From a virus: DNA of 64,000 nt. The number at the start of each line of letters is the position of its first letter. Positions within the stretch are counted from its first letter, which is position 1. Of the stretch, positions 38,158 to 64,000 are shown piece after piece. The stretch spans positions 1-64,000 of the IMG/VR virus record IMGVR_UViG_3300027714_000008; one strand, given 5' to 3'. The notes below the pieces were generated by a model. It did not search any database, was not told the DNA's origin, and was given only the letters and a program-made list of their open reading frames with translations. Position numbers and translations under genes: made by a program.

Positions 38158-39513
38158 TTACTGTAGGATGTTGTCTACACGGAAGATTCGGTAGTATTGG
38201 TTAGTCTTAGCAGTAGCTAATCCGTCATTTGGTGTTGAACCAACGAATGGGTTTGAGACCATGCCGTAGCGTGTCTTAAATCCGATTTTCGGTTGGAAGT
38301 CATTCTCACCAACTGCACGAACCATAGTTAATGGTACGTATGGGCAATAGAAGATACCAGCATCGTATGCGTTTGTACCTTTATAGCCTACAGTTACGTA
38401 ATCTGCAACTGCATATGGATCGATGTACACACGTGTACGACCATTCATAACACCAGCGAATGTGTTGCCTGTATCGTCTACTTGTAGATCTACTGACAAT
38501 GCTGGAGTATAATCCAACATACCAGAAGCCGCTAATGCAGAAGCTACGTCAGATGAACATAGGATGAAGTTACCCTTGCCGCGACGTGTTTCTTTTGCAA
38601 TTACGTTAGCTTCACGTTCGATCTGCATGATCAAACCTTTGAACTTCTCTACTGACCAACGACCATCTGCATCTGTTGACAAGTCAAAGATACCTTGGAT
38701 AGCAACGTTAGTTGACAATGCACCAGTTTTAGCTTGGCTGTTGATTGAACGAATTACTTCGCGGTTAATCTCAGCTAAGATTTCTGTTGACAAGATGTTA
38801 GCTAATTCAGTTTCAGCGTCTAAGCCGTGAATTGCTTTCAAGTCTTGTGCAAGCTCTAATGAGTATTCAGCTTTCAAAGCACGTGATTTTGCAGTCACAG
38901 TAGCTTTTTCAATTGTGAAACCCATCTCGTTGAAAGTAGAAGCTGTGCTACCTAATCCTTCTGCGTCGCCTGTTGGCATACCACCAGCAAATATTGGACC
39001 TGTACGCTCATTGTTGATTGAGCTGTCTTTTAGGTTGTATGAATTAGCTACACCAGAAGTTGCAGACGAGTCATCTGTTAAACCATTTAAGCCAGATGCA
39101 CCAGCACTTTGTGTCACACTTGAGTCACCAGAGAATACTGTATCTGCTTCGTTGAATAAAGCTTCTGTTGAACCAGTTGTACCAGCTGTATAACGTGACT
39201 TCATTGCAAAGATCAAGCCAGTTGGACCTGTCATTGGCTGTACACCACATAAATCGTATGCGATCATGTTTGGCATTGAACGACGTACTAAAGAGATTAA
39301 AACTGGATCCCAATTAGCTGCAGAAGAACCAACGTTGTTTGGTGTTTCCGCTAAGAAACCTGATTGAGCACGCTCTTCATTTAGTGCTTTCTCTTGGTTT
39401 TCTAAAGTGACAGCAGTAACCGAACGGCGATGCTTGTCTTTGATTGAAGGCGCAGATTCTTCATTAAGAACTGGTGCCCATTTTTTGACTAAACTGTCAT
39501 ATGATTCCATCAT
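38158..39513 (-). CDS. 23: major capsid protein gp23
   Basis: GVQPMTGPTGLIFAM, ELAQDLKAIHGLDAE, FQPKIGFKTRYG. Confidence 0.97.
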   Translation of the reverse strand: MMESYDSLVKKWAPVLNEESAPSIKDKHRRSVTAVTLENQEKALNEERAQSGFLAETPNNVGSSAANWDPVLISLVRRSMPNMIAYDLCGVQPMTGPTGLIFAMKSRYTAGTTGSTEALFNEADTVFSGDSSVTQSAGASGLNGLTDDSSATSGVANSYNLKDSSINNERTGPIFAGGMPTGDAEGLGSTASTFNEMGFTIEKATVTAKSRALKAEYSLELAQDLKAIHGLDAETELANILSTEILAEINREVIRSINSQAKTGALSTNVAIQGIFDLSTDADGRWSVEKFKGLIMQIEREANVIAKETRRGKGNFILCSSDVASALAASGMLDYTPALSVDLQVDDTGNTFAGVMNGRTRVYIDPYAVADYVTVGYKGTNAYDAGIFYCPYVPLTMVRAVGENDFQPKIGFKTRYGMVSNPFVGSTPNDGLATAKTNQYYRIFRVDNILQ

Positions 39514-39537
39514 TGGATGTATTCCTATTAATTAAAT

Positions 39538-40458
39538 TTACTGGGTTGATTTGATTGCGGCAACGTAACGCTGCATTGATTCTGATAACTCTACCTGAGT
39601 AGTTGTGTCATCTTCAATCAATTCTTCGCTTGTTGTAGCTTTTTTGGCAAAGACAGATTCTTTAATGGTTGCAACTTTATTTGCAAATTCATTATCGAAA
39701 TCGTAACCTTCAACCATGGTGCGTAATTTGTCAACTTGTGTGTCAGCTAAATCACTTGACGCTTCACGGATAGCCGCTTCACGTAAATGGTGTGCAACTT
39801 CAGCTTTAGATGCAAGTAATTGCTCTGTAGCTTCGTTTAATTTAGCTGATAATGTATCAACACTTTCTGCAAGATCATCTACTAGATCAACTTTGGCTTC
39901 TGGGATGTCTACATAAGATTCAGTGAACAAGGTCTTTAAACCTGTCATAAAGTCTTCTGCTATTTCCGCACGGAGACCTGATTGGATTGCCAATTGGTTC
40001 TCTTCTACCCAAGCTTCAACAACGTAGTTGAGATAGCTATCAACTTTTTCAACAAGCTCTGCTTTAGTAGCGGATACTTCTTCATCAAGTTGAGTGGCAT
40101 ATGATTCTTCCAAACGATCAACTTCTTCTGCAAGCTTTGCTTTCACATTAGCTTCAAAGATAATAGTTGCTTTAGCTTTAAACTCTCCTGAAAGAGTTGC
40201 CTCAGATTCTACTAATGAGTTAAGTTCGTCATGGAAGTCTACTTGTAAGTCTGCAGCTTCTGTGGCTACCACTTTATCCATTTTTTCAGCTTTCGCTGAA
40301 TTTGATTTGTCGCCCTTGCGCTTTTTAGCTTTGGGGCTTTTGCCTTCTGCAGCTTTTACTGAAGCTATTGAGGCTTCTTCTGCGTTCTTCGGATCGTGAG
40401 CTTCTTCGATTTCATTCTCGTCGAGCACCACATCCTGGTCTTGGATTTGATCAGTCAT
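39538..40458 (-). CDS. 22: prohead core scaffold gp22
   Basis: KATIIFEA, VDSYLNYVVEAW. Confidence 0.9.
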   Translation of the reverse strand: MTDQIQDQDVVLDENEIEEAHDPKNAEEASIASVKAAEGKSPKAKKRKGDKSNSAKAEKMDKVVATEAADLQVDFHDELNSLVESEATLSGEFKAKATIIFEANVKAKLAEEVDRLEESYATQLDEEVSATKAELVEKVDSYLNYVVEAWVEENQLAIQSGLRAEIAEDFMTGLKTLFTESYVDIPEAKVDLVDDLAESVDTLSAKLNEATEQLLASKAEVAHHLREAAIREASSDLADTQVDKLRTMVEGYDFDNEFANKVATIKESVFAKKATTSEELIEDDTTTQVELSESMQRYVAAIKSTQ

Positions 40459-40467
40459 GTATGACTC

Positions 40468-41130: not shown

Positions 41131-41134
41131 TCTA

Positions 41135-41695: not shown

Positions 41696-41971
41696 TTAAT
41701 CTTCATCATCATCATCATCTTCATCATCGTCCTCATCGTCGTCATCGTCGTCGTCAGACTCTTCTTCTGTTTCATCGTCGTCTAATTCTAAATCCTCAGG
41801 ATCGACATCTTCTACATCATCTGGCAATTCACCAAATATATGTCCTGCCGCAACGACCTTTTGTTGGGCTAAAGCATCATCGATACGTTGACCCATCATT
41901 TGTTCAAAGCTATTTTCTGCTGCATTAAAATCTTTATCTACAACACTGTCTATAAAATCTTGTGTACTCAT
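41696..41971 (-). CDS. acidic prohead core protein (gp67-like)
   Basis: follows the portal gene; poly-Asp/Glu tail. Confidence 0.7.
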   Translation of the reverse strand: MSTQDFIDSVVDKDFNAAENSFEQMMGQRIDDALAQQKVVAAGHIFGELPDDVEDVDPEDLELDDDETEEESDDDDDDDEDDDEDDDDDED

Positions 41972-41986
41972 TATAATCACCTTTGT

Positions 41987-44169: not shown

Positions 44170-45909
44170 TTAGACCGAGCCAACAACTTCTTCGAAGTCT
44201 ACACCAGTTCTAACAGCTACGAAATTTAGTGTAACGTAGTTGATTGAACGTGCAGGCTTGATGAAGATATTTGCTATGAATTCATTTCTATCTATAACGG
44301 CTGCGGAGTTATTTGATTCGTCACAAACAACACGGAAATCTGTAATACCGCGACGACCTTGGATTTCTCTCAAGAAAGGTTCTACGATGTTTACAAATTC
44401 TGCACGTGTAAATTCGTCATTGAATTCAAACATAACATTTCTTGCAGCAATTGCAATTGCTCTTTCCATAGTCAGGAACAAGCGACGAACGTTGATACGA
44501 TCGAAAGCTGATGGTCTGGCTAAGAATGTTTTATCACCAAATAACAATACGCCTTGACCAGGAATATTTGCAACTGGATTAATACCAGCTTTATATAGTG
44601 TGTCTCGTTCTGCTTTAGTCGGAGAATATGTTAAGGCAGTTATACCTAAAACTGAACCACGTCTTTGACCAGCTGGTGAAAACCAAGGTGCCGCTTGAAG
44701 ATCAGAAGCCGCCATAATACCTGCAACCGAAGATGCGTCTGGAATTTGGATATATTGGTCATTGTACTTGTCATATACTTTAAGATAGTTGTTTGAAACA
44801 ACCAAGTAAGACGACCTTGTAAACGTGTCTGTTGTTACAATTGAAGTAGCAACTGGTGTTGATGCATTCACAACTGCAGCTCTGTTAGGTGATGCTACTA
44901 CGACACAATCTTTACGTGTAGTTCCAGCAATTACAATCATGTTATTAACAACAGTTGTCATATCACCTTGTGCTGACATACCAGGAGCGATTAAGAAGTC
45001 AACAGTAATTGTGTCAACGTCACTAAACAATGCCATACCTGTGCCATACTTACTTGCAGTAAGTGCGGCTGAATCAGCACCAGCAGTTAAACTAGATGTT
45101 ATTGGAGCAGATGCAGATGCTTGATACGTTGTACCTTGAGCGGCTGTGCCAGCATTAGTTAGTGCAGCTAATGTACCTTCAAAAGTTGCAAGGTAAACAT
45201 ATTTAGATGCACTATTAATTACGTCTTTAACATAATTAGATGATCCGTCTGAAGATTTTGCATCAGATGCAACAGAGACAAATGCGTAACGCTCTAATAT
45301 AGTACCAGGAGTTCCTGTAAACAGACCATCCTCGTCTATAACTGCAACGTGTACTTCGTCATTTACAGCACTTCTTGCTAATCCATAGGCAGATGTTACT
45401 GGTGGTGAATCGAAAGCCGCTCTTTGACCCCATACTGAAAAGTATGTGCCTGAAGAATCTGAGCCTGCTGGACATAAAGAAACTCTTAAAGAGTTACCTA
45501 GTGCGCCTGGATATCTTGCAATCCAACCACCAGCATTTGTGTCACCAGAGTCAGAACCAAACGTACTTGATAACGAGTCAAAGTGCTCTTCTTCTCTCAC
45601 AAGTAACGTTAGCCCTGCGGAGTTTGCATTGTATGCATGCGCTGTAGCTTCTCGTACCACTTGTAGAGAACTTGAATATTTTAAATAGTATGCGGCAGAC
45701 AGAAAGTCTACAGCCTTAGTAGATGATGGGGAAGCGAATGTCGCCGCAAGATTAGCCTCTGTGTCTATCAGAGTAGCTTTTCTAACTGGTCCCCATCTAA
45801 AATCACCTACAAATGCGCCTGTTGTCGATTGTACATTTGGCACTACGCCAGTTAAATCAACTTCTTTGACTACAATTGCTGGGGATTCTGATGGACTGAA
45901 TATTGCCAT
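44170..45909 (-). CDS. 18: tail sheath protein gp18
   Basis: PWFSPAG, FDRINVRRLF, FEFNDEFTR; late promoter at 45974-45981. Confidence 0.96.
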   Translation of the reverse strand: MAIFSPSESPAIVVKEVDLTGVVPNVQSTTGAFVGDFRWGPVRKATLIDTEANLAATFASPSSTKAVDFLSAAYYLKYSSSLQVVREATAHAYNANSAGLTLLVREEEHFDSLSSTFGSDSGDTNAGGWIARYPGALGNSLRVSLCPAGSDSSGTYFSVWGQRAAFDSPPVTSAYGLARSAVNDEVHVAVIDEDGLFTGTPGTILERYAFVSVASDAKSSDGSSNYVKDVINSASKYVYLATFEGTLAALTNAGTAAQGTTYQASASAPITSSLTAGADSAALTASKYGTGMALFSDVDTITVDFLIAPGMSAQGDMTTVVNNMIVIAGTTRKDCVVVASPNRAAVVNASTPVATSIVTTDTFTRSSYLVVSNNYLKVYDKYNDQYIQIPDASSVAGIMAASDLQAAPWFSPAGQRRGSVLGITALTYSPTKAERDTLYKAGINPVANIPGQGVLLFGDKTFLARPSAFDRINVRRLFLTMERAIAIAARNVMFEFNDEFTRAEFVNIVEPFLREIQGRRGITDFRVVCDESNNSAAVIDRNEFIANIFIKPARSINYVTLNFVAVRTGVDFEEVVGSV

Positions 45910-45986: not shown

Positions 45987-46622
45987 TTAATATTGTCCAA
46001 ATGCCCATTTCTTCTCCTGACAATGATAGCATATTTTACATGGTTCTGTGTAATTATTAGTTCTCTCAGCATAATACGTACAAGACCAACTCTCTTTAAT
46101 ATACCTTTCAGGTAAATCTAATTGCTTAAACAAAAGAGCTATGTCTCGTTTGTCCATATGAGCAAAAGGTCTATAGGTTTTTGCACCAGTTGCATGATGT
46201 ACTTGATAGATAGTATTAGTCTTATTGACTCTTCTTTCATCTTTGTACATACTACCCCAAGTATTAACAATGTTCCATGAAGGTAGTGCAGTAAGGCCAG
46301 TTATAATTATTTTTAAATCCTTGTACTTTTCATACATTTTCTTATCAAAAATACCATGAATTTCATGTTGTTCATTAATACCATCCTCTTCCCAATGAAA
46401 TACTTCAATTTCTTTTATATTAAGATTTGGATGTTTAATTCTTGCATCAGATAAAATACCTTTGGTAATAGATGCAGTGTTTGTAACTCTACTACCAATT
46501 GATTGCATAGGAAGGATAGACACATTTGGAGATATTATATCACATATATAAAATAATAAAACCAATGAATCTAATCCACCAGAAATACCAACACCGACCA
46601 TTCCAGAATCAGGTAAGTCCAT
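45987..46622 (-). CDS. QueC-like PP-loop ATPase
   Basis: GISGGLDS; SWSC...PCKICYHC. Confidence 0.7.
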   Translation of the reverse strand: MDLPDSGMVGVGISGGLDSLVLLFYICDIISPNVSILPMQSIGSRVTNTASITKGILSDARIKHPNLNIKEIEVFHWEEDGINEQHEIHGIFDKKMYEKYKDLKIIITGLTALPSWNIVNTWGSMYKDERRVNKTNTIYQVHHATGAKTYRPFAHMDKRDIALLFKQLDLPERYIKESWSCTYYAERTNNYTEPCKICYHCQEKKWAFGQY

Positions 46623-51128: not shown

Positions 51129-54100
51129 TTAGTTTAATAGGTTGCCAGCGGCATTATATACATTAATTCTATAATGAGAAGCCGCTTGTCCGTCTAAAGT
51201 ACCAGCATTAACACCACTTGTGCCGTTGACATCAACTGTTCTAAGGGCAGTTAGTATCTGTGCGGCTGTCTGATCGGCTGTAGCACTTGATTCAATGCCG
51301 TCTAGTTTAGTACCATCGGCGGCAACGTCACGACCATCAACTGTTCCCGATGCGGCAAGGTTGACAACAGTTAACGTACCTGAGCTAGAATTAAAGGTAA
51401 GATTAGAACCACTCTTTGGCGGCAATTCGCCTGTCGCACCAGTTGTAAATAATGGAAAACAAGTCGTATCACTTGATTCATCTGCTACTGTAACAGCAGT
51501 AGCAACAGCTGCTAAAGCAACATCAATATTAGCCGTACCATTGAAAGATGTACCACCGATAGTTCTTGCAGTTGCTAATGCAGTTGCAGTTGCCGATAAA
51601 TCTACTGCAATATTAGCACTACCATTAAATGATGTTCCACCAATAGTCCTTGCAGTTGTTAAAGTGGCGGCTGAACCAGATGTGTTTTGATTACCAGTTG
51701 CATTAACACCAGCAAGGTTTATATTCGCTGATCCATTAAATGATACACCACCAATAGTCCTTGCAGTTGCTAATGTAGTTGCGGTATTCGCTAAACCCAC
51801 TGCAATATTAGCACTACCATTAAATGATGTACCGCCAATTGTTCTTGCAGTTGTTAGCGTAGCGGCTGAACCAGATGTGTTTTGATTACCAGTTGCATTA
51901 ACACCAGCAAGATTTATATTAGCACCACCATTAAACGATACGCCACCAATAGTTCTTGCAGTTGCCAATGTAGTTGCAGTTGCGGCATTACCAGTGACTT
52001 CACCAGTAAAATTAGTTGCTGTTATTTTACCTGTACTTGGATTGTAAGTAAGCCCTGTGTCATGTTTTATCGCCGTAACTGCGCCACTTGTTGCCGCGTC
52101 AAACTTAATTGTAAAGTTTGTGTTAGTTGATTCGTCTGCTGTTGTTACAGCACCAGCAGCTGCCCATGATAGTGTTTTGTCACCACTTGTTACTAAGGCT
52201 TGTCCAGCAGAACCATCTGCATTTGGCAATGTCCATATAACGTTAGCGGATGGAGAAACTGGTTGACCAAATCCTACATAGTTACTTGCGTTACTGTCAA
52301 GGAACCTTTGTTCTGTTACTGCTGACACAAGTGATGTTAATACGCCTGAGCTAGGGTTATATGTTAAGCCAGTATCCGTCTCAATACCCTGTGTCCCTGT
52401 TGCACCATCTACGAATGTAGGAAATACTGTTTCATTGGCTGTATTGTTAGCAGTTGCCGTAATTGCAGTTCCTATTGCTGCAGTGCCAGATGTGTTTTGA
52501 TTACCAGCAGCATTAACACCAGCAAGGTTTATATTCGCTGATCCATTAAAGGATACGCCACCGATTGTTCTTGGAGTAGCTAAGATGGTTGCAGTTGCCG
52601 CATTACCAGTTAATTCACCTGTAAGTGCGCCCTCAAATGTACCAGCTTTAACAATACCCAACGTGACTGAACTATCAGCCATGTTTATAGTACCTGAAAC
52701 ATCAGAGTCGTAAGCGTTTAAGAATGTCCACTTAGTCTCACTCACATCAAAGAATAGACCCACGTGAGTGTGGCCTATACCTGAGCTACCAGTGTTTCTG
52801 TTTGTAAATATACCAGTATCAACATTGATAGGAGATGCTGAACCTAGCCATGCGTTATTTAATGTGTGACCAGTTACTGCACCAAATTCTACACTAATAC
52901 CATTTGCTAATGTGTGCGCACTATCGTTAATTCTAATATTTTCACCTAGGACAGTAGAAAATGCAGAGTCATAAGAAAACTTGAATGAGTCACCAGCCGA
53001 GTCTGCACTATCAATTGCAAGATAGAAAGCTCTGTTGACAATATCTGTAAAGTGACCTTTAAGAACCGCATCATCAAGACCTGAACCTGTTACCAATGCA
53101 GTGTTTGCATCACCTATTGTATCACCTTGGTTAAGATTATTAAATGCGCCACCAATATTGATATTCTGTGTGGATGCGTTTACTTGAGTACCTAAAACTG
53201 TTAAGTTATTACCAACAACCAAATTAGTGCCTATGTGAGCATCACCAATAGTTCTAAAAGTTTGAGTCGTATCATGGCTTAACTCGACCAGAATTTGTCC
53301 AGTGCTTGCATGACTTGTTAAAACACGACCAACTGTAATTGGAAAGTTAGGGAATGAATTTTCTGTACTAGACAATGCACCAGCTGATGCTCCAAGGAAT
53401 ACAGCGGCATTGGCAGTCAAAGAAGACGTGTCGATGTTATTTACTAGACCTGAGTTTGTTACGTACCCAAATGTGCCATTCTCAATATCATGGGTTGCAA
53501 GACCAGAAACTTCGTAGTGATCCGCGTTTGATCCGTTTGCAAGTCCGATTGTAGGTGTAGTACCTTGCACACCAACATAATAGACTGGTTTACCATCAAG
53601 GATTGTTGCACCAGATCCGTTATAAACTCTAGTAACTTGCTCTTGACCAACTTGTAAAGTCATAGCAGCTTCGTCGTTGTAGACTGCTAAAGCACCGAAT
53701 GCTGAGTCGTAAAATACTCGACCTTCTGCATGTGCAGGGATAATACCAGAATAATCTAAGAAGCCTGGTGCAATTGAAGTGGCAGTGACAACATCGAATG
53801 TTACGTCGTCTGTTGTTGCAACTGCTTGACCAATAGCAATGTCGTTGGCATTTACTGTGACACCAGTACCAGCACCAATGTTTAATGTGCGTGTAGCTGC
53901 AATAGTACCACCGCCTGTCAAACCTGCACCAGCAGTAATTGTTACGCCGGTGTGATCAATATGTTCGTTTGCAACAAATCCACTTAGATTGTCGTGTACG
54001 ATTTGTCCGTCATTAGTTGTGATGTTATCTGCATTTGCAGTTAAACCAGTACCAGCAATAACATTAAGTGTACGATTGGCGGCGATAGTACCACCGCCTG

Positions 54101-55007
54101 TTAAACCAGTGCCCGCAATAACAGAAACACCTGAGTGATCGATATGCTCATTTGCAACAAATCCGCTTAGACTGTCATGTACAATGTCACCATCAGTTGT
54201 AGTAATCACACCAGTGCTATCATTGTATGTAATACCAGTACCACCACTTATAGCGTTCTTAGCGTCACTGTCTGCACGAGCAGTCGTGTAATAAAGGTTA
54301 CTACCTTCTGTAAGATTAGCTGTAGTGAAAGGACCTAGTGTAGCAGTTGCAGTAAATGTACCACCATCTGCTGTACCAATTGTTAAGATGCCGTTACTAC
54401 TATCGTATCCAAATGATGCAACACCTGCAACTGGAAATACTCCAGCAGAGTCTATTAGTCCTTGAGCGTTTACTGTAAATTTTGGAACTAAAGAACCAGA
54501 ACCATAAGTACCAGCAGTCACACCTGTGTTTGTTATTGATATTTTACCAGCGGCAGAGTCGTATGTAATTCCTGTGGAAGCTACTAGCTTGGCTCTTACT
54601 TCTGCTACACTAGGACCTGTATATGTTAATACGCCTGTTGCAGGGACATATGCAAAAGAACCATCTCCACCAGCGTCTGTTAGACTGATTGCGTTCTTTG
54701 CATCAGAATCAGCTCTTGCTGTAGTGTAGTATAGATTATTACCTTCGCCTAAGTTGGTAGTGCTTTTTGTAGCTATTCGTACATCAAAGGCAGAGTCAAC
54801 TCTTGATGTTGTATGATACAAATTGCTACTGCCTTCAGTAATCTCATCTGTATTATCCTTTGATGCTATTTGTGTAGCAACGTATGCTTGCGTAGCAACT
54901 GGAAGGTTTGCCTGAGTTATAATGCCACTTACGTTTACTGAACTATCAAACGTTGAAGGTCCTTTGACTGTAATGCCATTCTTAACTATAAAATTCTTGT
55001 CTGCCAT
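51129..55007 (-). CDS. long repetitive tail fibre/virion fibre protein
   Basis: G/A/T/S-rich; EGSNLYYT, AGTGLTGGG and TARTIGG repeats. Confidence 0.85.
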   Translation of the reverse strand: MADKNFIVKNGITVKGPSTFDSSVNVSGIITQANLPVATQAYVATQIASKDNTDEITEGSSNLYHTTSRVDSAFDVRIATKSTTNLGEGNNLYYTTARADSDAKNAISLTDAGGDGSFAYVPATGVLTYTGPSVAEVRAKLVASTGITYDSAAGKISITNTGVTAGTYGSGSLVPKFTVNAQGLIDSAGVFPVAGVASFGYDSSNGILTIGTADGGTFTATATLGPFTTANLTEGSNLYYTTARADSDAKNAISGGTGITYNDSTGVITTTDGDIVHDSLSGFVANEHIDHSGVSVIAGTGLTGGGTIAANRTLNVIAGTGLTANADNITTNDGQIVHDNLSGFVANEHIDHTGVTITAGAGLTGGGTIAATRTLNIGAGTGVTVNANDIAIGQAVATTDDVTFDVVTATSIAPGFLDYSGIIPAHAEGRVFYDSAFGALAVYNDEAAMTLQVGQEQVTRVYNGSGATILDGKPVYYVGVQGTTPTIGLANGSNADHYEVSGLATHDIENGTFGYVTNSGLVNNIDTSSLTANAAVFLGASAGALSSTENSFPNFPITVGRVLTSHASTGQILVELSHDTTQTFRTIGDAHIGTNLVVGNNLTVLGTQVNASTQNINIGGAFNNLNQGDTIGDANTALVTGSGLDDAVLKGHFTDIVNRAFYLAIDSADSAGDSFKFSYDSAFSTVLGENIRINDSAHTLANGISVEFGAVTGHTLNNAWLGSASPINVDTGIFTNRNTGSSGIGHTHVGLFFDVSETKWTFLNAYDSDVSGTINMADSSVTLGIVKAGTFEGALTGELTGNAATATILATPRTIGGVSFNGSANINLAGVNAAGNQNTSGTAAIGTAITATANNTANETVFPTFVDGATGTQGIETDTGLTYNPSSGVLTSLVSAVTEQRFLDSNASNYVGFGQPVSPSANVIWTLPNADGSAGQALVTSGDKTLSWAAAGAVTTADESTNTNFTIKFDAATSGAVTAIKHDTGLTYNPSTGKITATNFTGEVTGNAATATTLATARTIGGVSFNGGANINLAGVNATGNQNTSGSAATLTTARTIGGTSFNGSANIAVGLANTATTLATARTIGGVSFNGSANINLAGVNATGNQNTSGSAATLTTARTIGGTSFNGSANIAVDLSATATALATARTIGGTSFNGTANIDVALAAVATAVTVADESSDTTCFPLFTTGATGELPPKSGSNLTFNSSSGTLTVVNLAASGTVDGRDVAADGTKLDGIESSATADQTAAQILTALRTVDVNGTSGVNAGTLDGQAASHYRINVYNAAGNLLN
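51500..52600 (-). repeat. TARTIGG(V/T)SFNG(S/T)ANI fibre repeats
   Basis: six copies, long and short units alternating. Confidence 0.85.
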
Positions 55008-55026: not shown

Positions 55027-55653
55027 TTATGTGATAATTGTTTGGTGGGCTTTAACTAATATTGTATTTGCAGGATTACGTGTAAATTTAACTTCAATTG
55101 TGCCTGAGTTATTTGTTACAGCTAAAGATCCTAGATCACTATCACCAGTATGTACTATACCATATTCTGTACTTGCTATATTTGTTCCGTCAAATGCAGT
55201 CAATATTTTAGAGATTTGTGTCTCTGTAGAACTGCCATTGTATGCTGAAATATTAAATTCTATTGCAGTGGATGCACCACCTGTTACATATGATGCAACG
55301 ATTGTAGCTGATCCGCTTGTTACTGATACACCAACTGGTTGTGCTTTAACTATACCATTCTTAGTATAAAGAGTGCCAATGTAAGCACCTCTAAATCTTA
55401 TATCATCTGTGCCAATATCAATCGCATCTGAATCAGAGGCAAATAATGCACCAGAAATAGTTGCACTATCAAGTGTTTTATTAGTTAGTGTTTGTGCACC
55501 CGACGTTGTAACAGATTCAAATCCACCAGCGGTCGAACCATTATGTACTCTAATACTATTTAATTGATTATCATATGAGATTTCACCAGCAGCCCCAGTA
55601 AAGTTATTATTCTGAGCTGTTGTGCCTCGTCTAAACTGGACTACTGTAGGCAT
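55027..55653 (-). CDS. virion structural protein (Mtd/hyaluronidase-type N-terminus)
   Basis: VQFRRGT...GEI.YD...VHNG.TAGG. Confidence 0.7.
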   Translation of the reverse strand: MPTVVQFRRGTTAQNNNFTGAAGEISYDNQLNSIRVHNGSTAGGFESVTTSGAQTLTNKTLDSATISGALFASDSDAIDIGTDDIRFRGAYIGTLYTKNGIVKAQPVGVSVTSGSATIVASYVTGGASTAIEFNISAYNGSSTETQISKILTAFDGTNIASTEYGIVHTGDSDLGSLAVTNNSGTIEVKFTRNPANTILVKAHQTIIT

Positions 55654-55671: not shown

Positions 55672-56157
55672 CTATACACTTGAATCTACGCCAAGATCTA
55701 TTGTTGCTAACGAACCTACAGGATTCATACATTCAAATGTTCCGCCTGTTGAAATTCCAAACGCATCAATTTGACCTGTTGAGTCTACTGTTCCATAATT
55801 ACCTTCTGGAAAGTTAACTGCTCCAACGCCTGTTATGACTGCGTTATCTACATATATTTTATTTACCGCATCATTATTATCAGAAGGCGAAGATAAATTA
55901 ACAATCCTAAGACTGTTCATGTTTATCTGACCAGTCATTGTTCCACCAGATGTGAGCAATGTTTCTGATTGTGCCGAATCTATTTGAGCCTTTATAGCAT
56001 CAGAATCAGTAAAAAATTTAACTACATTATCGGCATTTTTATAAAAAAGTCTTCCGTCTTTATAGTTAATAGCCAATTCACCATAGGCCAAATCGCCAAC
56101 AAGAGGTATCTTGCCAGCCGAATCTGATTTAAGTAATCTAATCTCTACGTTAGACAA
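55672..56157 (-). CDS. virion fibre-like protein
   Basis: GELAINYKDGRLFYK, GGTMTG, DAVNKIYVD; late promoter at 56201-56208. Confidence 0.7.
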   Translation of the reverse strand: MSNVEIRLLKSDSAGKIPLVGDLAYGELAINYKDGRLFYKNADNVVKFFTDSDAIKAQIDSAQSETLLTSGGTMTGQINMNSLRIVNLSSPSDNNDAVNKIYVDNAVITGVGAVNFPEGNYGTVDSTGQIDAFGISTGGTFECMNPVGSLATIDLGVDSSV

Positions 56158-56212: not shown

Positions 56213-57205
56213 TTAATACTCGCCGCCGTCAACAATATTCAAAGTTACACCACCATTAACTACAGTGAATTGAGTATTATCAAAGAAAGCTAAACCTCTT
56301 TGCGTGTATGAGGCGTTAAATACATTGATTTTAAACTTACCGCTTGATGAATCCAAGTTAAAACCGATAGATGCATCAGCAGTAGTTATCTTTGCTCCTA
56401 CATCAGAATCGAAACCTAAATATGAACCAGCAAGTGTACTCGCTTTAAATGGCGCAAGTGAAAATGACGAGTGTGCTATATTAATTGCAGTCGATCCTGT
56501 TGGATCTAGTGTATAGTTATCATACACCTTAAATGTCTTATCTGTTGCGTCTCTGAACATACCAGTAAACGCAAAACCTGAACTATCTTCTTTGCGTCCA
56601 GCCGCATAACCAATATCAATAGAAGCGTTTGGGCTTCCAGCTGAGTCATTAGAGTTAAGCTTGATGTGATGGTCTGCAAGGTTCAAAGTCTCTGAATTAA
56701 TAACAGTCTGTGTGCCTGTAACTGTAAGCCCACCTGTAATTGTGAGATTTGCCAAAGACAAAGTGTCGTCAATATTAATAGCAACGTTGTTATTAGTTAC
56801 TACTGTTCTTAAACCATTACCACCCGAAAAAGTTAAAGTGTCAGCTAGGATTGATACAGAATCAGTTCCAGAGTCGCCAGCCAAAGCAATGTTAGTAGCA
56901 ACACTTATTTCTCCAGCAGAGTCAAGTCTACCATCCGAAAGTATTTTTATTTGTGGTATTTTTGTGGCTGAACCATAAGTTCCAGCAGTAACATTAACAG
57001 GAGGTAAAGCATCCGAGGCTTCCCATTTGCCAACAGACGAATCATACGCAAGAAGGTTGCCGTGTGATGCACCCGAAACATCTACGTCAGATAAACTTGC
57101 AAATGATCCACCAGATTGAACAATGCTACGTATTGGTGCGCCAACAACCACTTTTTTTACTTGAGTTTCATTCAACCCAGCGATTATGACAGTTCTATCA
57201 ACCAT
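56213..57205 (-). CDS. virion fibre-like protein
   Basis: LSDVD, VTAGTYGS, LTVTGTQT. Confidence 0.7.
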   Translation of the reverse strand: MVDRTVIIAGLNETQVKKVVVGAPIRSIVQSGGSFASLSDVDVSGASHGNLLAYDSSVGKWEASDALPPVNVTAGTYGSATKIPQIKILSDGRLDSAGEISVATNIALAGDSGTDSVSILADTLTFSGGNGLRTVVTNNNVAINIDDTLSLANLTITGGLTVTGTQTVINSETLNLADHHIKLNSNDSAGSPNASIDIGYAAGRKEDSSGFAFTGMFRDATDKTFKVYDNYTLDPTGSTAINIAHSSFSLAPFKASTLAGSYLGFDSDVGAKITTADASIGFNLDSSSGKFKINVFNASYTQRGLAFFDNTQFTVVNGGVTLNIVDGGEY

Positions 57206-57214: not shown

Positions 57215-57571
57215 TTACCTTGTAATCGATGCGTTTACGTTAATTCTTCCTTCTAACACTCTTTCAACAATTAACGTAGAAGAGCTATCAAGATACTGTA
57301 TTTCAGCATCGTAAAGGTATCGACCAGGTTTAAGTATTTCAGTTTGAGCATTAGTCAAAGAAAGATTTACAATGCCTGATGTCGCAGGGCTTGTAATCAC
57401 GGCTAAGAAATCGTGGCTATCTGCACTATCAGAATTTATTGATCTTTTTAATTTTGCTTTAGCAGAAAAATTAGTTAAATTCTTAGCAGTATCATCTATT
57501 GAGTTTACTAAGTGTACTTCAATAGCTACGTCAGTACCTTGATCTATTTCAATTTCTTCGTATTGTGCCAT
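57215..57571 (-). CDS. baseplate/BppU-like Ig-fold structural protein
   Basis: IDQGTD, LSLTNAQT..LKPGRYLYD, RVLEG; late promoter at 57602-57609. Confidence 0.7.
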   Translation of the reverse strand: MAQYEEIEIDQGTDVAIEVHLVNSIDDTAKNLTNFSAKAKLKRSINSDSADSHDFLAVITSPATSGIVNLSLTNAQTEILKPGRYLYDAEIQYLDSSSTLIVERVLEGRINVNASITR

Positions 57572-57604: not shown

Positions 57605-58387
57605 TTATAACAAATATTTCCCCATACCAGAATAAAAAATAGATTCGTGGCAAGAATTAAATACACAAATAGCTTTACTTTCATCATAAAAAACTAATAC
57701 TTTACCGATCACAGCTCCACCAGCTGCTAATGTAGACTCTGTGTCTAATCTAATAAAGTAAGATTTATCTGGATCAATGTGAGGTGTAAGTTTACATCTA
57801 AAATACCAATCATCTTCACTTAAACTACAAAAATTAGCACTAGGAATTTCATAGCTAAAAAATCTATCAATGCCATGATATAGATTAGTATAAAGTTTTA
57901 TTGATTTTACAAACTTATTATATAAGTCTTGATTCTCATTGTTGTACCAAACCATAATTGAAGAATTGTAATAAGGTTTGGTATGTTTCGAAAACTCCTG
58001 AAAATAATCATTAGAATAATCATTTAAACTTTCCTCAAAAACTTGATCTATTAGAGTTAGTTTATTATGTGACGCTTCATCAAATAGATGATCGATATTA
58101 TTTTGTATCACTACATCTAAATCTAAATAAAGATTGACACCATCATAATCATTTTGTTTAAACATGGTAAGTTTCCACCACCAAGCTTTTAAATCGAGTC
58201 GCGTGTCTAATGAAACAATGCTTATTCTTTCGTCAACACCCTCAGAATCTTCTGTATAACAATAAAAGTTAAATGGCAAAGTGATGTTTCTCTCTGCCAT
58301 TCTATAGAGTCTATTTACATGTTCAGCAGTGAACTTGTCACCCCATTTAACACATACTACGTTGTGTTCCAAATCTTTTGTACCCAT
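57605..58387 (-). CDS. glycosyltransferase (GT-A, GT8-like)
   Basis: VCVKWGDKF, WWKL, YLDLDVVI (DxD), YNSSIMVW. Confidence 0.8.
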   Translation of the reverse strand: MGTKDLEHNVVCVKWGDKFTAEHVNRLYRMAERNITLPFNFYCYTEDSEGVDERISIVSLDTRLDLKAWWWKLTMFKQNDYDGVNLYLDLDVVIQNNIDHLFDEASHNKLTLIDQVFEESLNDYSNDYFQEFSKHTKPYYNSSIMVWYNNENQDLYNKFVKSIKLYTNLYHGIDRFFSYEIPSANFCSLSEDDWYFRCKLTPHIDPDKSYFIRLDTESTLAAGGAVIGKVLVFYDESKAICVFNSCHESIFYSGMGKYLL

Positions 58388-59022
58388 TCTGCTTTGTCCT
58401 CAATCATATTGTCGTCATATATGAAATGTACTAGCTTGATTTGATCGCCAAACTTCTCTTGAGTTATCAAAGGCTTGTTATAGTAATCGTAGTATTTATT
58501 TATTATATCCTTGTTGTTTCTGGACGAACCTTCTGTATGAACACCTAACCATTGGCCTGGGAGTTCCTCTATAAAGTAATTAGAATCAGTAACAAAGTTT
58601 TGTTCGCCCATTCCCATAATACCAATTAATTTTCCATAGTGATTAATCCAGAAATCAGGATTAGAATAAAATTTGTCGTAAACGGCAAGTTGATTATAAC
58701 CAGGATTAATTTTATAAAACCCACCATTATATTTACAACCACTGTTTTTCCACCATCTTGGAAACGCTCCAATATGATTTTCTACAATGTCATAGTTGAA
58801 TAGTTCATCTAGGCTTCCATTAACAATAATATCTATGTCCATAACAATGCAAGGATCTTGGCGTTTAAAAAAAGATATTTTATCCCAATGACCATTAGGG
58901 CAATCAGTCTTTACAATAAAGTTAAAATCGCCAGAATAATTCCTAGCTATGCCATTTTGTAAATTGTCAATATATTTTGAGCTATACTTTTCACCGAAAT
59001 GTGTTACGCATATATCAATCAT
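58357..59022 (-). CDS. glycosyltransferase (GT-A), paralog of the adjacent gene
   Basis: GEKYS, WDKI, MDIDII, YNGGF, GEQNF, LVHF. Confidence 0.75.
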   Translation of the reverse strand: MIDICVTHFGEKYSSKYIDNLQNGIARNYSGDFNFIVKTDCPNGHWDKISFFKRQDPCIVMDIDIIVNGSLDELFNYDIVENHIGAFPRWWKNSGCKYNGGFYKINPGYNQLAVYDKFYSNPDFWINHYGKLIGIMGMGEQNFVTDSNYFIEELPGQWLGVHTEGSSRNNKDIINKYYDYYNKPLITQEKFGDQIKLVHFIYDDNMIEDKAEWVQKIWNTT

Positions 59023-59723
59023 TCAATGCCTATTTCTTCTAGTACGTCTTCCCAAAAGCCTTTACTTGTTTGATCAAATACATAAGACACTGTAAATCTC
59101 CAACAATCAGTAGAAGCCATATGATACACCAAGTTTTCAGGACCATCTTCATATGATCCAAAGTAAAAGGCTTTAGCTTGCCAACCCACTTTATCTTTTA
59201 CTAAAACTTCTTCACCAGTTTTAGGATCTACATGTTTCCAATACCCATCACCAGTTTCAGACCAAGTTAAAACTATATTGTAACTTGGTGCGTTTGCATT
59301 ATTATGCCAACCAATGTAGCCACCAGGAGGGTACACAGCCGCCAAAGCATTAGATCTAGTGCTTAAAATAGAAGACAACTTTTTATTAAGCCTTATGTAG
59401 TTGTCATTAAAGTATTTCTCTTTGATTTTATCATCGTCTGTCCTTGGAGTTCTATCCCAATAATCAGATGTTTTTACTTGCTTAAATGTATACCCATAAA
59501 GACATTCAGGATAACCATCGTGGTCTTTATAATCAGCCATGATTTTCTTTTTGTATGCGTCACTTATATTTTCTTCACGTTTGTTTTTTTCGTTGTTTGC
59601 ATTTATAAGATAAGCATGTTTTTTAAAAGATTCTAAATCGTTATACCAAAGGTCTTTAAACTCATTGAGTGTATCAAGAACTTCGTTATTAACAATGTTA
59701 ACACTTGTCATAGTCTTTGTCAT
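59019..59723 (-). CDS. putative 2OG-Fe(II) oxygenase-like protein
   Basis: YPPGGYIGWHNN...VYH...WRFT; paralog of 14842-15519. Confidence 0.55.
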   Translation of the reverse strand: MTKTMTSVNIVNNEVLDTLNEFKDLWYNDLESFKKHAYLINANNEKNKREENISDAYKKKIMADYKDHDGYPECLYGYTFKQVKTSDYWDRTPRTDDDKIKEKYFNDNYIRLNKKLSSILSTRSNALAAVYPPGGYIGWHNNANAPSYNIVLTWSETGDGYWKHVDPKTGEEVLVKDKVGWQAKAFYFGSYEDGPENLVYHMASTDCWRFTVSYVFDQTSKGFWEDVLEEIGIE

Positions 59724-59726
59724 TCT

Positions 59727-60470
59727 TCAATACCGATCATATTTTTCTATTAAACCGCTGTAGTGTTGGATTATAACACCTTTCTCTGGCTTTGTAAACC
59801 CTTTAATTTCATACGTCATATACCAATTCCATCTCTCACCATCTTCAAAGGAACCTACTTTAAGATCTTTATAATAAGGGTGTTCCTCTGTTAAAAACCA
59901 TAAAGTGAATTGATCGAATTGACGTAATACTTCTGGATGCAAATCAAAATCTTGTTTACCATCTTTATATGCAGGCCACCAATTTCCAGCAAATTGATTG
60001 CGGTAATATTCGTTCCACATTTTCATAAAACTTTGAACTATAGGTTTTCTAATATCATAAAGAACTATGCCACCACAAAGTTTCATTTCTCCACCACGCC
60101 ACTTACGAATTGCAAACAAAGAATCTTTGTCCACAGGCAAATCAACAAAGGCTATGTCGTTTCCTTTAAGTTGATCAAATGCAAACTCAATATCTTCATG
60201 TATGATTTCTACGTCAGCGTCAACATACATTGTAATATCAAAAGGAGTCTTATCTAAAGCCCATAGCTTTTCTCTTACATGGTCACCGCAATATATTAAG
60301 TGGTCCGCAATAGATTCGCGCCCATCACAGAAAGCTTCCTCTGTAACAAGACAAACTTTAGCGTCTGGATAGTTATCTCTAATAGAATTTATTGCGTTTA
60401 TAGCTAAATCAAAAAACCTAGGTTTAGTAGATGCTACAAGTAAAAACCCTTTAGTCGGTTCCGTTTTCAT
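59727..60470 (-). CDS. glycosyltransferase (GT-A, GT8-like)
   Basis: TPFDITMYVDAD, CGGIVLY, DQFTLW, RWN, IQHY. Confidence 0.75.
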   Translation of the reverse strand: MKTEPTKGFLLVASTKPRFFDLAINAINSIRDNYPDAKVCLVTEEAFCDGRESIADHLIYCGDHVREKLWALDKTPFDITMYVDADVEIIHEDIEFAFDQLKGNDIAFVDLPVDKDSLFAIRKWRGGEMKLCGGIVLYDIRKPIVQSFMKMWNEYYRNQFAGNWWPAYKDGKQDFDLHPEVLRQFDQFTLWFLTEEHPYYKDLKVGSFEDGERWNWYMTYEIKGFTKPEKGVIIQHYSGLIEKYDRY

Positions 60471-60921
60471 TATTTAATACTTCCATCACAATCATCATAC
60501 AATATACATTAACTTCAACGACGTTTTGAGCTTTTCTTAATTTAGATTTTAAAACTCTATTAGTAGAATTTTTAATAGCGTCTATCTCGAAAGCAGAAAT
60601 CTTAGCTTCAAATAGTTGTTGAAGGTCTTTTGCTCTTGCTCTTTCTAATCTTGCTTGTTCTGCTTCAGTGCGTTCAACTAATTTCTTTTCGTTACGTTCG
60701 TTAGTGTTGGCAGTGATTGCTTCAAAAGTTATAGCATCAAGAACTTCTTTAAAGTCTGGATTTTCATTTCCATCAACATCAAATTTATTTACAGTAAGTT
60801 GTTGAGTAGTAGAATTTTCATTCTCATCGACAATCGTTAAAATTGTTGTTATTCTATTTTGATCATAACTTTCCCAAAAGGACTTTTTATCCCAAGTGCG
60901 ATTATTCATAGTATTCTCCAT
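60451..60921 (-). CDS. hypothetical protein
   Basis: helical; LFEAKISAFEI..IKNS. Confidence 0.65.
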   Translation of the reverse strand: MENTMNNRTWDKKSFWESYDQNRITTILTIVDENENSTTQQLTVNKFDVDGNENPDFKEVLDAITFEAITANTNERNEKKLVERTEAEQARLERARAKDLQQLFEAKISAFEIDAIKNSTNRVLKSKLRKAQNVVEVNVYCMMIVMEVLNNENGTD

Positions 60922-62173: not shown

Positions 62174-62494
62174 TTATGTGTTCAGTAAAGTACCAGCTGC
62201 GTTATACACATTTGGTAATCGTCTATTCAACTCATTAACAGAGCTTACCAGCGATGTTTTGTTTGTAGTAGTCAAAGATGCCAATGAAAGAACTCCACCA
62301 CTATCACCATAAAAATTAGTCCTTAATGATAATACATCACTATCAACATCTGAGTGGACTTTATTAACAGCAACAACAAGTGATGTTGCAGAGTCCGTCA
62401 AAGATGTAAGATCACCTTGCAATATTCCAAGTTGATTTGTTTTATCTCTCCAACTAGCAATTGTAGTTGAAAGATCAACGTTGATTAATGACAT
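62174..62494 (-). CDS. small virion fibre-like protein
   Basis: WRDKTN, LTTTNKTSLVSSVNEL. Confidence 0.65.
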   Translation of the reverse strand: MSLINVDLSTTIASWRDKTNQLGILQGDLTSLTDSATSLVVAVNKVHSDVDSDVLSLRTNFYGDSGGVLSLASLTTTNKTSLVSSVNELNRRLPNVYNAAGTLLNT

Positions 62495-62495
62495 G

Positions 62496-62711
62496 TCATA
62501 ACTTCTCTATAATCTGGCTTAACATCATTTTAATATCTTTTACATCACTTTTAAGCTGGTTAATTTCTTCCCTTTCAGCCGCCTTAGTCTCTCTTTGGTT
62601 TACCCTGAGGTTCTTAATGCGATTGATCTCAGTGCTATTTATATTAATTATAGCACCTGTATTTTTATCTCTTGCTAATCCGCTATGACCTTCTACCTTC
62701 ACTAAATCCAT
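62496..62711 (-). CDS. conserved T4-like small coiled-coil protein
   Basis: VEGHSGLARDKNTGAIIN. Confidence 0.75.
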   Translation of the reverse strand: MDLVKVEGHSGLARDKNTGAIININSTEINRIKNLRVNQRETKAAEREEINQLKSDVKDIKMMLSQIIEKL

Positions 62712-64000
62712 TATGTGCCTAATGCAATAGTTCTTAACGCTTTAAATCTAGGTACGTCTGTTGACGATGTTGAACGCATTACTATTTTAATTTGGTAAGT
62801 AGTAAATGGTGCAAGGTCTCCTTGATATGTTCCACCTATGACATATTTATACTCTCTGAATACGTTATAATTTGTATCAATAGGAAGCGTATTATGATTT
62901 GAATCAGGTTCTACTTTTGATGCCTCTATCCAAGCAGTGTCTTCAATGCTTACGTCACCACCAGCATCTAACACTTTATAGAAAAGATCAAAGTCTGTAC
63001 CCTGAGGTCTATTGACATCAACAAGGACTTTAATACCAGTTGCAGGTTCAGCTAATAAAACAGGTATTGATATGTGTTTAGCCAAGGTAGATCCAAAGTT
63101 TGCAACTGTCTCAGCTACATAGCTTAATGGGACGTTAAATCCAGTTGTTGCCGCTGAATCTGGATTATCAATAATGTTGTGGACTGATATAACAGAAGCT
63201 CTTTGTAAGTCTACAGAAGGAGCCGCATATGAACTTGTTGTCACTAACTCCAAATCAATAGTATAAGAAGACCTAGTAAGGGCTGTGTCTCTAACAGCAG
63301 TCGCAATAACAGCTGGAGAATTTAAGAACGTATCCATTTTGTTTGCTGTTGCGTGTTTAGGTAAAGTCCCATAAGCAGTTTCACCACCACCAAAAGATTT
63401 AGAAGTTGTTAGACCAGCTACCATGCGATGATTTGTGCCATTTGGTTGAAGTATTTCAATATTAGGCTTAAAGCTATCTATGATATATTGTTGTGTAGCA
63501 AGGATGCTATTACCACCACCGAATATAGCTGAGTCTGCCGAACTGTCCATTTCAAATTTATAGCCAGTACCATCAATGTGAGTAACAGCTCTTGATCCTA
63601 AGATACTTGCACCTAAAACACCATTGATGCTAGTAGCAGAATCTAACCCACTTGAGTCAGAAGATATATGTACGACGTCATTTACTTGAAAGCCGTGGTT
63701 AGGATGTGCAACAGTAACAGTTGCATCACTTGCCGCAAATAGAAACGGATTACTTGTTAATGATTTTACAGGTGGCGGAGCCGCATTAAATCTTACTAAT
63801 GCGTTAGTGCCTGTGAAGTTGGCTCTATATACTTTAAAAGTTAAATCACGAGTCTGATCCGCTTCAAATACTCTACCATTAGCAGACTTAAAGAATATGC
63901 CTGCGTATGGATCTGTTTGAAGTCTTTCTGTTGTTGAACCTAGTTTGAAGTCACCTAACTTAGCAGTCCACACTTGATATGCATTACCAAGAGCATTTGA
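62711..64000 (-). CDS. large baseplate-associated protein (VrlC/DUF4815-like), 5' end outside the window
   Basis: frame open to the window edge; FKSANG...DLTFKVYRANF, VPRFKALRTIAL. Confidence 0.75.
   Translation of the reverse strand, partial: SNALGNAYQVWTAKLGDFKLGSTTERLQTDPYAGIFFKSANGRVFEADQTRDLTFKVYRANFTGTNALVRFNAAPPPVKSLTSNPFLFAASDATVTVAHPNHGFQVNDVVHISSDSSGLDSATSINGVLGASILGSRAVTHIDGTGYKFEMDSSADSAIFGGGNSILATQQYIIDSFKPNIEILQPNGTNHRMVAGLTTSKSFGGGETAYGTLPKHATANKMDTFLNSPAVIATAVRDTALTRSSYTIDLELVTTSSYAAPSVDLQRASVISVHNIIDNPDSAATTGFNVPLSYVAETVANFGSTLAKHISIPVLLAEPATGIKVLVDVNRPQGTDFDLFYKVLDAGGDVSIEDTAWIEASKVEPDSNHNTLPIDTNYNVFREYKYVIGGTYQGDLAPFTTYQIKIVMRSTSSTDVPRFKALRTIALGT

Follow-up and report, generated by a model that had tools for sequence, protein, structure and literature searches.

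The structural module and its Asp-Ser sites

The window analysed here is the whole stretch of 64,000 nucleotides, which corresponds to positions 1-64,000 of a viral contig 98.7 kb long (G000; IMG/VR record IMGVR_UViG_3300027714_000008; CheckV completeness 59%). Its structural genes encode proteins in which the dipeptide Asp-Ser (DS) is unusually frequent and is most often followed by Ala, Ser or Asp. This three-residue word, written DS[ASD], or DS[ADSG] when Gly is also admitted, is the subject of the present analysis. The contig is that of a marine T4-like myovirus of the Kyanoviridae type. The closest deposited genome is that of phage C48C1 (56% identity in gp15), on which a literature search found no report; identity to pelagiphages and cyanophages is about 41-43%.

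The structural genes form a minus-strand module that extends from position 38158 to about position 81360 of the contig. Its genes follow the order gp23, gp22, gp21, gp20, gp19, gp18, gp17, gp16, gp15, gp14 and gp13, after which come fibre genes, an enzyme cassette, further fibre-like genes and the baseplate. The genes relevant to the motif are listed in Table 1, and those without a T4 name are designated by their first coordinate.

Table 1. Coordinates of the motif-bearing structural genes, the enzyme cassette and two neighbouring genes.
Feature	Position	Strand	Length (aa)	Observations
gp23, major capsid protein	38158..39513	-		4 DS; three are DSS in variable loop 130-165
Asp-rich protein	41696..41980	-	94	32% Asp; between the portal gene and the prohead genes
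gp18, sheath	44170..45909	-		5 DS
PP-loop, QueC-like protein	45987..46622	-	211	SGGLDS motif; between the sheath and terminase genes
gp15	48607..49389	-		4 DS; three conserved sites: GxxDSD, DSD[FY]GF, C-terminal DSA
gp14, neck protein	49393..50310	-		6 DS
Large tail fibre	51129..55007	-	1292	18 DS, 14 of them DS[ADSG]
Tail protein, Mtd_N domain	55027..55653	-	208	3 DS, all three DS[ASD]
Small fibre-like protein	55672..56157	-	161	5 DS, one within the final four residues (DSSV)
Fibre or connector-like protein	56213..57205	-	330	8 DS, 7 of them DS[ADSG]
L-shaped tail fibre assembly protein homologue	57215..57571	-	118	3 DS
Divergent GT-A/GT8-like glycosyltransferase	57605..58387	-		PHROG phrog_1962, E 2.6e-9
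Second GT-A/GT8-like gene	58357..59022	-		phrog_1962, E 3e-5; distant paralogue of 57605 (blastp)
2-oxoglutarate-Fe(II) oxygenase-fold protein	59019..59723	-		Model and Foldseek; predicted local distance difference test score (pLDDT) 73
Third nucleotide-diphospho-sugar transferase-like gene	59727..60470	-		Invariant DAD motif
Conserved protein	60451..60921	-	156	phrog_27823; flanks the cassette in all relatives (synteny)
Small fibre-like protein	62174..62494	-	106	3 DS, all three DS[ADSG]
Structural protein	62711..64000, continues past the window end	-	533 (full)	8 DS, 6 of them DS[ASD]

The sites are unevenly placed within these proteins. In the large tail fibre every DS is N-terminal of residue 905 and the conserved C-terminal fibre domain has none; one 14-residue segment of this protein is present twice. 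The part of 62711 inside the window has 7 DS in 420 residues. In gp14 five of the six DS belong to a clade-specific C-terminal domain, beyond the Pfam neck domain (positions 4-180). In the AlphaFold model of this protein (26-sequence alignment; pLDDT of the C-terminal domain 67-89) all six are in loops or at the first or last residue of a strand, which agrees with the proposal of the original prediction for this stretch that the sites often occupy loop-like segments. The five DS of gp18 fall in its variable N-terminal outer region (residues 111-279), ahead of the conserved sheath domains (300-564). The N-terminus of 55027 matches Pfam Mtd_N (E 3.6e-9), the N-terminal domain of the major tropism determinant from the Bordetella phage diversity-generating retroelement.

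The motif is absent from gp13, gp19, gp20, gp21, gp22 and the baseplate core. The sites shun the internal or enclosed parts of the particle (tube, portal, baseplate core and scaffold); those of gp18 and gp23 occupy variable outer regions of these proteins. The motif had been described as virion-wide, and this is wrong: it is characteristic of fibre-like proteins and of variable outer segments of gp14, gp15, gp18 and gp23.

Enrichment beyond amino acid composition

Dipeptide expectations were derived from the composition of each protein, and DS[ASD] was tested by gene class with 500 within-protein shuffles. In the late genes DS occurs 79 times against 45.4 expected (1.74-fold, z 5) and ranks first among the 400 dipeptides, whereas the control dipeptides SD (1.10-fold), DT (0.76-fold), ES (1.07-fold) and NS (0.76-fold) are not enriched. 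The early genes are depleted in DS (0.76-fold). The difference is larger in the fibre cluster, where DS reaches 2.99-fold and DT only 0.62-fold. When all tripeptides of the late proteins are ranked without bias, DSD is first, DSA third and DSS fourth. Moreover, no other dipeptide is significantly enriched in as many individual proteins as DS, both in G000 and in G001, a 141-kb IMG/VR contig (84% complete) that stands behind locus L043. The counts per protein made by hand in the original prediction were all reproduced (for instance, gp13 has none, gp17 and gp20 have one each and gp43 has 4 in 824 residues), and the enrichment that it reported persists under composition control.

The word is concentrated in a few gene classes. 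DS[ASD] is found 29 times in the fibre cluster 51129-57571 (3.5 expected, z 14), 24 times in the segment 60958-71453 (5.4 expected, z 7.8) and 13 times in the head, neck and tail genes 38158-51067 (5.4 expected, z 3.3). There are none in the enzyme cassette (0.9 expected) or in the baseplate core 71453-81360 (3.9 expected), and the non-structural genes have 7 (14.2 expected). The residue that follows DS at position +2 in the late genes (n=79) is Ala in 21 cases, Ser in 17, Asp in 12, Leu in 7, Gly in 5 and Val in 4. The flanks of this core are weak: position -1 is hydrophobic in 44% of the sites against a background of 31%, hydrophobic residues are also enriched at -3, and Gly occupies 20% of the +3 and 17% of the +4 positions against a background of 8%.

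It is very improbable that this pattern is an artefact of chance, composition or paralogy, an explanation already refuted by the shuffles and the controls. These proteins are fairly rich in Ser and in Asp, a roughly twofold enrichment of [ADSG]SD indicates some local S/D-rich composition, and the duplicated 14-residue fibre segment contributes an internal repeat. However, the observed values were reached in 0 of 500 within-protein shuffles, and the asymmetry between DS and SD, seen in the late genes and again in the homologues of the large fibre (639 DS against 286 expected, 2.23-fold; 274 SD, 0.96-fold), led to the rejection of local S/D-rich composition as the main cause. Paralogy and internal repeats were likewise rejected, since an all-against-all blastp comparison of the structural proteins detected a single similarity of 89 residues, and the pattern recurs in dozens of relatives at 55-60% identity. 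An origin as a DNA word (GAY-TCN, generating GANTC sites) was also discarded, as 38% of the motif Ser codons are AGY. Because both Ser codon families serve (41 TCN, 25 AGY), the motif is not a DNA word, and the earlier argument that varying codons exclude a DNA repeat stands.

Conservation in environmental relatives

Relatives were collected from IMG/VR, 80 loci through gp14 (55-60% identity) and 24 through the 57605 protein. The ratio of observed to expected DS[ASD] is 9.2 in the homologues of gp15, 8.3 in those of 57215, 5.9 in those of fibre 51129, 4.4 in those of gp14 and 2.6 in those of gp18. The corresponding values are 0.8 for gp20, 0.27 for gp13, 0.06 for gp17 and 0 for gp19. Some sites are strongly conserved. 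Among 51 distinct gp15 homologues, G-x(1,2)-DSD is present in 46, DSD[FY]G[FY] in 47 and a DSA-COOH terminus in 30, and the patterns LTL-DS-xGG-F and S-DSD-xxL-x-L-x-H recur in the gp14 homologues.

The Ser of the motif is better conserved than the other Ser residues of the same protein: 60% against 41% in the fibre, 98% against 33% in gp15, 95% against 35% in 57215 and 62% against 28% in 64355. In the homologues of 57215 the motif Asp and the motif Ser are both conserved in 95%. The sites in the variable loops of gp14, gp18 and gp23 turn over rather than stay fixed. Where the Ser is lost there is no preference for Thr as its substitute, nor is a lost Asp preferentially replaced by Asn.

Other structural proteins of the relatives differ widely in DS content. 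Small structural proteins encoded at L091:15687-17505, L102:14172-15682 and L084:5837-7694 (all on the minus strand) carry 12-29 DS each, at a density of up to one per 13 residues. At L044:471-5569 there are five paralogous fibre-like proteins (321-351 aa) with the reverse bias, which have 0-2 DS each against 3.5-4.2 expected and 3-7 SD each; the gp14 of this locus retains two DS[ASD].

Restriction to one clade

Seven whole genomes or near-whole contigs were compared: G000, G001, G002, C48C1, Mosig, HTVC008M and Syn9. The genome-wide ratio of observed to expected DS[ASD] is 2.16 in G000 (11 strongly enriched proteins), 2.21 in G001 (15 proteins), 1.28 in G002 (6 proteins), 1.04 in C48C1 (2 proteins), 0.98 in Mosig, 0.86 in HTVC008M and 0.80 in Syn9, and no protein is strongly enriched in the last two. 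No late protein of Syn9, HTVC008M or Mosig has a significant enrichment in DS, and C48C1 has only one. In C48C1, gp14 has no DS, gp15 has one and three fibre proteins reach only 2.4-3.8-fold. The possibility that the motif is a general trait of marine T4-like phage fibres was rejected, the fibres of Syn9, HTVC008M and Mosig having none.

The strongest indication comes from alignments of gp14 and gp15, which locate the difference at individual loops. In gp14, the LTL-DS-A/G of the clade corresponds to ET, DA or EI in the outgroups (Syn9, HTVC008M and C48C1), and S-DSD-N corresponds to PET or AST. In gp15, A-DSD-FGF is A-DDD-FGF in the cyanophage and the pelagiphage, while the first site (GLxDSD), where the outgroups have unrelated residues, and the C-terminal DSA have no outgroup counterpart. 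Since the outgroup loops have other residues at these sites, the fold does not need DS. The alignments thus indicate that one clade gained the DS word at several loops of several unrelated proteins. Together with the extra conservation of the motif Ser, these gains support the earlier proposal of convergent selection, acting on the protein in a single lineage.

The motif also appears to be depleted in the non-late proteins of the motif-bearing genomes, with DS[ASD] ratios of 0.49, 0.55 and 0.58 against 0.77, 0.97 and 0.85 in Syn9, HTVC008M and Mosig, a difference that is suggestive only, the counts being small and the genomes related.

The enzyme cassette of the fibre module

The genes 57605 to 60921 form a cassette in which three genes are GT-A/GT8-like, a reasonable assignment that depends on weak homology. 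Both 57605 and 58357 carry an invariant DxD, which in 57605 is D89-x-D91, invariant in 20 sequences and in a GT-A context. The family profile of 57605 matches GT8 structures of the PDB weakly (6mw5, E 0.01; 1g9r, LgtC, E 0.13). In a search against the Pfam GT8 family (PF01501) 57605 gave no match and 58357 scored 19.6 bits, under the gathering cut-off of 24.3. The third gene, 59727, clusters in the ESM Atlas with PF03407/PF01501 proteins (Nucleotid_trans or GT8; score 0.97, 10 of 10 in agreement). The original prediction of three glycosyltransferases in the module is therefore a sensible one, given the phrog_1962, GT8 profile and ESM Atlas matches, weak as they are.

The remaining enzyme, 59019, has the fold of a 2-oxoglutarate (2OG) oxygenase. 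Sequence searches of Pfam, PHROG and the PDB with 59019 and 59727 were all empty, and the fold of 59019 comes from its model. Foldseek returned 124 PDB matches at E <=0.001, headed by protein prolyl hydroxylases and AlkB homologues; the best are 6t8m, 4j25 and PHD2 (Dictyostelium PhyA, Pseudomonas putida P4H and PHD2), with E 5e-6 and a template modelling (TM) score of only 0.36-0.42. The ESM Atlas lead for this protein is 'Asp/Asn beta-hydroxylase' (score 0.92). Compared with the HxD/E...H iron triad and the RxS/T 2OG site of the superfamily, its invariant residues are H140-N141-N142, H201 and R209-x-T211, so that an Asn occupies the expected position of the iron-binding Asp (HxN instead of HxD).

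Fibre-module enzymes vary among the relatives. The fibre module of G001 contains five radical S-adenosylmethionine (SAM) genes and small 2OG oxygenases, and a second cluster of the same genome has a divergent, sub-threshold GT8-like gene, a HAD-nucleotidyltransferase fusion and two methyltransferases, beside a DS-rich protein of 454 residues; these clusters are at L111:2702-13829 and L113:5186-15629. In L085, L090, L091, L095, L099 and L102 the fibre module is interrupted by an oppositely oriented cluster of 10-12 genes, among which are radical SAM enzymes, a NodU-like carbamoyltransferase, a GT8-like homologue of 57605 and many family-less genes. The clusters of distant relatives, such as that at L091:6031-14141, adjoin extremely DS-rich small proteins (16 DS in 203 residues, 29 DS in 393 residues). 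A similar cluster is present in Mosig (60990-71305). Homologues of the PP-loop, QueC-like protein of Table 1 in G002/L085 and in L095 lie within fibre-module enzyme clusters, beside the glycosyltransferase homologue. In C48C1 (L105), a nucleotide-sugar epimerase and a UDP-glucose dehydrogenase are encoded within the replication module (35326-37226).

The motif as a candidate modification sequon

The reading that we favour, although with less than even confidence, is that D-S-(A/S/D) is a sequon for covalent modification, probably for O-glycosylation of its Ser. It would be a short recognition motif gained repeatedly by one clade of marine T4-like phages and placed on solvent-facing loops, strand ends and termini, namely in the fibres, the C-terminal domain of gp14, the tail of gp15, the outer region of gp18 and the loops of gp23. 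Its reader would most likely be a phage-encoded cytoplasmic modifying enzyme produced late in infection. The leading candidates are the GT-A/GT8-like transferases of the fibre-module cassettes, which may be assisted by the 2OG-oxygenase-fold enzyme. The attachment of a group, its identity and the enzyme responsible are all inferred.

A reader acting in trans is argued from the directional Asp-Ser word, from the gains at loops where the fold can dispense with it and from the C-terminal DSA, and equally from the restriction to the outer particle, the depletion elsewhere and the ever-present, variable cassettes of the fibre module. Of the possible chemistries, glycosylation is the most parsimonious, given the GT-A genes of the module and the precedent in mycobacteriophages.

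Several observations weigh against this interpretation. The co-occurrence of glycosyltransferases with the acceptor motif fails across the relatives, among which no single enzyme family tracks the motif. The 57605, 59727 and 59019 families are all missing from G001, the genome with the strongest motif. L048, L053, L059 and L075 keep the motif without both phrog_1962 genes at the syntenic place; they retain 59727 and 59019, and DS[ASD] in their fibres is very strong (for instance, 36 against 4.3 expected). In the opposite direction, Mosig lacks the motif although it encodes three homologues of 57605, two of which are in a fibre-module cluster, and C48C1 has all four cassette families, the 59019 type in three copies, and yet a weak motif. 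A GT8-like match of some kind, mostly sub-threshold, is found in the four genomes with an observed/expected ratio of at least 1.04, and not in Syn9 or HTVC008M, six related genomes in all. The link that had been drawn between the motif and the glycosyltransferases of the module is thus not borne out, and persistence of the motif in relatives without these enzymes, which would have spoken against the original prediction, is found in part: in G001 as regards all the families, and in the four loci just mentioned as regards the phrog_1962 pair. The glycosyltransferase assignments all depend on weak homology (Pfam scores under the cut-off, a PDB profile match at E 0.01), and the seven compared genomes are phylogenetically related, so that correlations among them are not independent. 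Furthermore, a lost motif Ser is replaced by Ala, Gly or Asn, which also suits a tight turn, as do the Gly residues two or three positions downstream and the placement at strand ends. In the DS-rich proteins of L091, L102 and L084 the spacing between DS has a peak at 15 residues, like a marker of structural rungs.

These last features are those expected if the motif were structural or physico-chemical only, a possibility that has to be taken seriously even if it seems rather unlikely. DS would then form a D-S-x(-x)-G turn of the Asx/ST type, or the corner of a rung in a beta-solenoid or beta-spiral, possibly with a bound cation, and would have spread from the fibre architecture of the clade to other surface loops. 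The strand-loop boundaries occupied in the gp14 model, the Gly at +3/+4 with hydrophobic residues at -1 and -3, the small residues that replace a lost Ser and the failure of any enzyme family to track the motif all fit this explanation, and so do the spacings of the L091, L102 and L084 proteins, in which 5 and 10 residues are also common and the local pattern is hydrophobic-DS-A-x-hydrophobic. However, the DS spacing of the window proteins is broad (13-20 residues) and without a sharp period, the orthologous loops of Syn9, HTVC008M and C48C1 hold their fold without DS, and the outgroup fibres have no excess of it. Near-equal turn formers (DT, NS and ES) are at or below expectation, and a turn is impossible for the DSA conserved at the C-terminus of gp15. 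The simultaneous gain in the capsid, sheath, neck and fibres of one clade, together with the depletion in non-virion proteins, also points to a reader in trans. Turn-like or rung-like features do not exclude a sequon, because Ser residues in turns of solenoid rungs are modified elsewhere, as in the heptosylation of autotransporters.

If the motif is a sequon, the modification might not be glycosylation: 2OG-oxygenase-fold enzymes could hydroxylate the Asp, the Ser could be phosphorylated, or carbamoylation or radical-SAM chemistry could be at work. We regard this as unlikely. The enzymes of the G001 fibre module, which include none of the glycosyltransferase families of the window, the protein-hydroxylase fold and ESM Atlas lead of 59019, and the NodU-like carbamoyltransferase and radical SAM enzymes of the L091-type clusters could all provide such a chemistry. 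Nevertheless, the 59019 family is missing in G001 and G002 and present threefold in C48C1 with its weak motif, and an HxN replaces its HxD iron ligand. HTVC008M has several annotated 2OG oxygenases adjoining its fibres and no motif, and kinases were not seen. In addition, when genes for radical SAM enzymes, carbamoyltransferases and methyltransferases occur near glycosyltransferases, this is also typical of the synthesis of unusual sugars, which leads back to glycosylation. Spontaneous Asp-Ser isomerisation, autoproteolysis and phosphopantetheinylation of the DSL type known from acyl carrier proteins were considered and dropped, no feature supporting them.

The gene-content comparison of the seven genomes gave no enzyme family that is shared by the motif-bearing genomes and absent from the motif-poor ones. 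The sole family present in all three motif-bearing and in none of the four motif-poor genomes is a helical protein of 88 residues, encoded in G000 at 94121-94387 (outside the window) and in L003 at 9848-10087, and located between gp14 and gp15 in many relatives. Its N-terminus, FFDFGFT, echoes the DSDFGFT of gp15. Such a protein would be a candidate partner if DS were a docking motif for a non-enzymatic ligand, for example a phage protein with a role in decoration or assembly, or a component of the host surface. We consider docking improbable: three residues are very short for protein docking, the 88-residue protein is without any link to fibres, sheath or capsid, and its family was compared in seven genomes only, of which G000 is 59% complete.

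Significance and comparison with known systems

If D-S-(A/S/D) were truly a modification sequon, the sequence alone would suffice to predict which sites of a phage particle are modified, and an abundant group of ocean phages would decorate its particle surface, with consequences for host recognition, grazing, aggregation and particle stability. A function would also be found for the enzyme cassettes in the tail-fibre modules of marine myoviruses, whose usual annotation is that of auxiliary metabolic genes or of modifiers of the host surface. If the motif were structural only, it would still be a clade-specific three-residue signature, convergent in unrelated folds and useful as a clade marker.

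A bolder proposal, which we put forward with considerable doubt, is that this widespread clade of uncultured phages encodes a protein-modification system that works in the cytoplasm and has the motif as its acceptor sequon, which would be the first to be defined for a system of viral origin. Glycans or another adduct would be placed on capsid, sheath, neck and fibres by the fast-evolving fibre-module cassettes (GT-A transferases, 2OG oxygenases, radical SAM enzymes and a carbamoyltransferase), and the non-virion proteins would have been purged of the motif, avoiding off-target modification. A literature search found no report of a DS sequon or of virion glycosylation in cyanophages or pelagiphages.

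Protein modification by hydroxylase-plus-glycosyltransferase cascades is known in other systems, such as that of protist Skp1 (PhyA, then Gnt1, PgtA and Gat1) and the collagen lysyl hydroxylase/glucosyltransferase L230 of Mimivirus. The window resembles such cascades in having a 2OG-oxygenase-fold gene between GT-A genes. Moreover, the best structural match of 59019 is the Skp1 prolyl hydroxylase of Dictyostelium, and in the PDB the 57605 family profile scores highest with Gat1, the alpha-galactosyltransferase of Skp1, although both matches are weak (TM 0.36-0.42 and E 0.01, respectively) and reflect broad superfamilies. Unlike the targets of Skp1-type and L230-type enzymes, the motif contains neither Pro nor Lys, 59019 has HxN in place of HxD, and the oxygenase family does not track the motif.

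Bacteroidetes reportedly use, according to Fletcher, Coyne, Comstock and colleagues, a general O-glycosylation sequon D-(S/T)-(A/I/L/V/M/T). Its targets are exported proteins, modified outside the cytoplasm; Thr is accepted besides Ser, and position +2 has to be aliphatic or Thr. The motif described here shares with it the Asp directly before a hydroxyl residue and the frequent Ala at +2. However, DT is depleted (0.62-0.76-fold), Ser and Asp are as frequent at +2 as Ala, and the particle is assembled in the cytoplasm. The Bacteroidetes pattern D[ST][AILVMT] reaches 1.8-, 0.9- and 1.1-fold of expectation in the three motif-rich gene classes. The parallel with this sequon drawn in the original prediction is consequently a misfit, Thr being avoided and Ser or Asp being as common as Ala at +2.

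Another parallel is offered by the bacterial autotransporter heptosyltransferases (BAHT), such as Aah and TibC, which act on AIDA-I and TibA, respectively. These enzymes heptosylate autotransporter beta-helices in the cytoplasm, are GT-B-like and recognise their substrates structurally. As in BAHT targets, the proposed acceptors are Ser residues on short inter-strand loops of repetitive fibrous or solenoid proteins that would be modified in the cytoplasm before assembly, and the DS-rich proteins of distant relatives, with their 15-residue spacing, resemble BAHT substrates. In contrast, the genes found here are GT-A/GT8-like and not GT-B-like, and a D-S word takes the place of structural recognition.

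Among phages, mycobacteriophages encode glycosyltransferases that glycosylate capsid and tail-tube subunits at their C-termini (Freeman et al. 2023, Cell Host Microbe, as cited in PMC12619734 and PMC12801897). The window shares with them phage glycosyltransferase genes beside structural genes, virion surface proteins as proposed targets and one C-terminal site, the DSA of gp15. Mycobacteriophages, however, are siphoviruses in which the glycans on C-terminal extensions were demonstrated by mass spectrometry, whereas here the modification is a prediction. We know of no short consensus motif in mycobacteriophage virion glycosylation. In contrast to the mycobacteriophages, the tube lacks the motif, the sites are in the fibre, neck, sheath and capsid loops of T4-like myoviruses, and the word D-S-(A/S/D) is strict. 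With respect to known phage virion glycosylation, the new elements would be the occurrence in T4-like marine phages, the many target proteins and the defined three-residue word.

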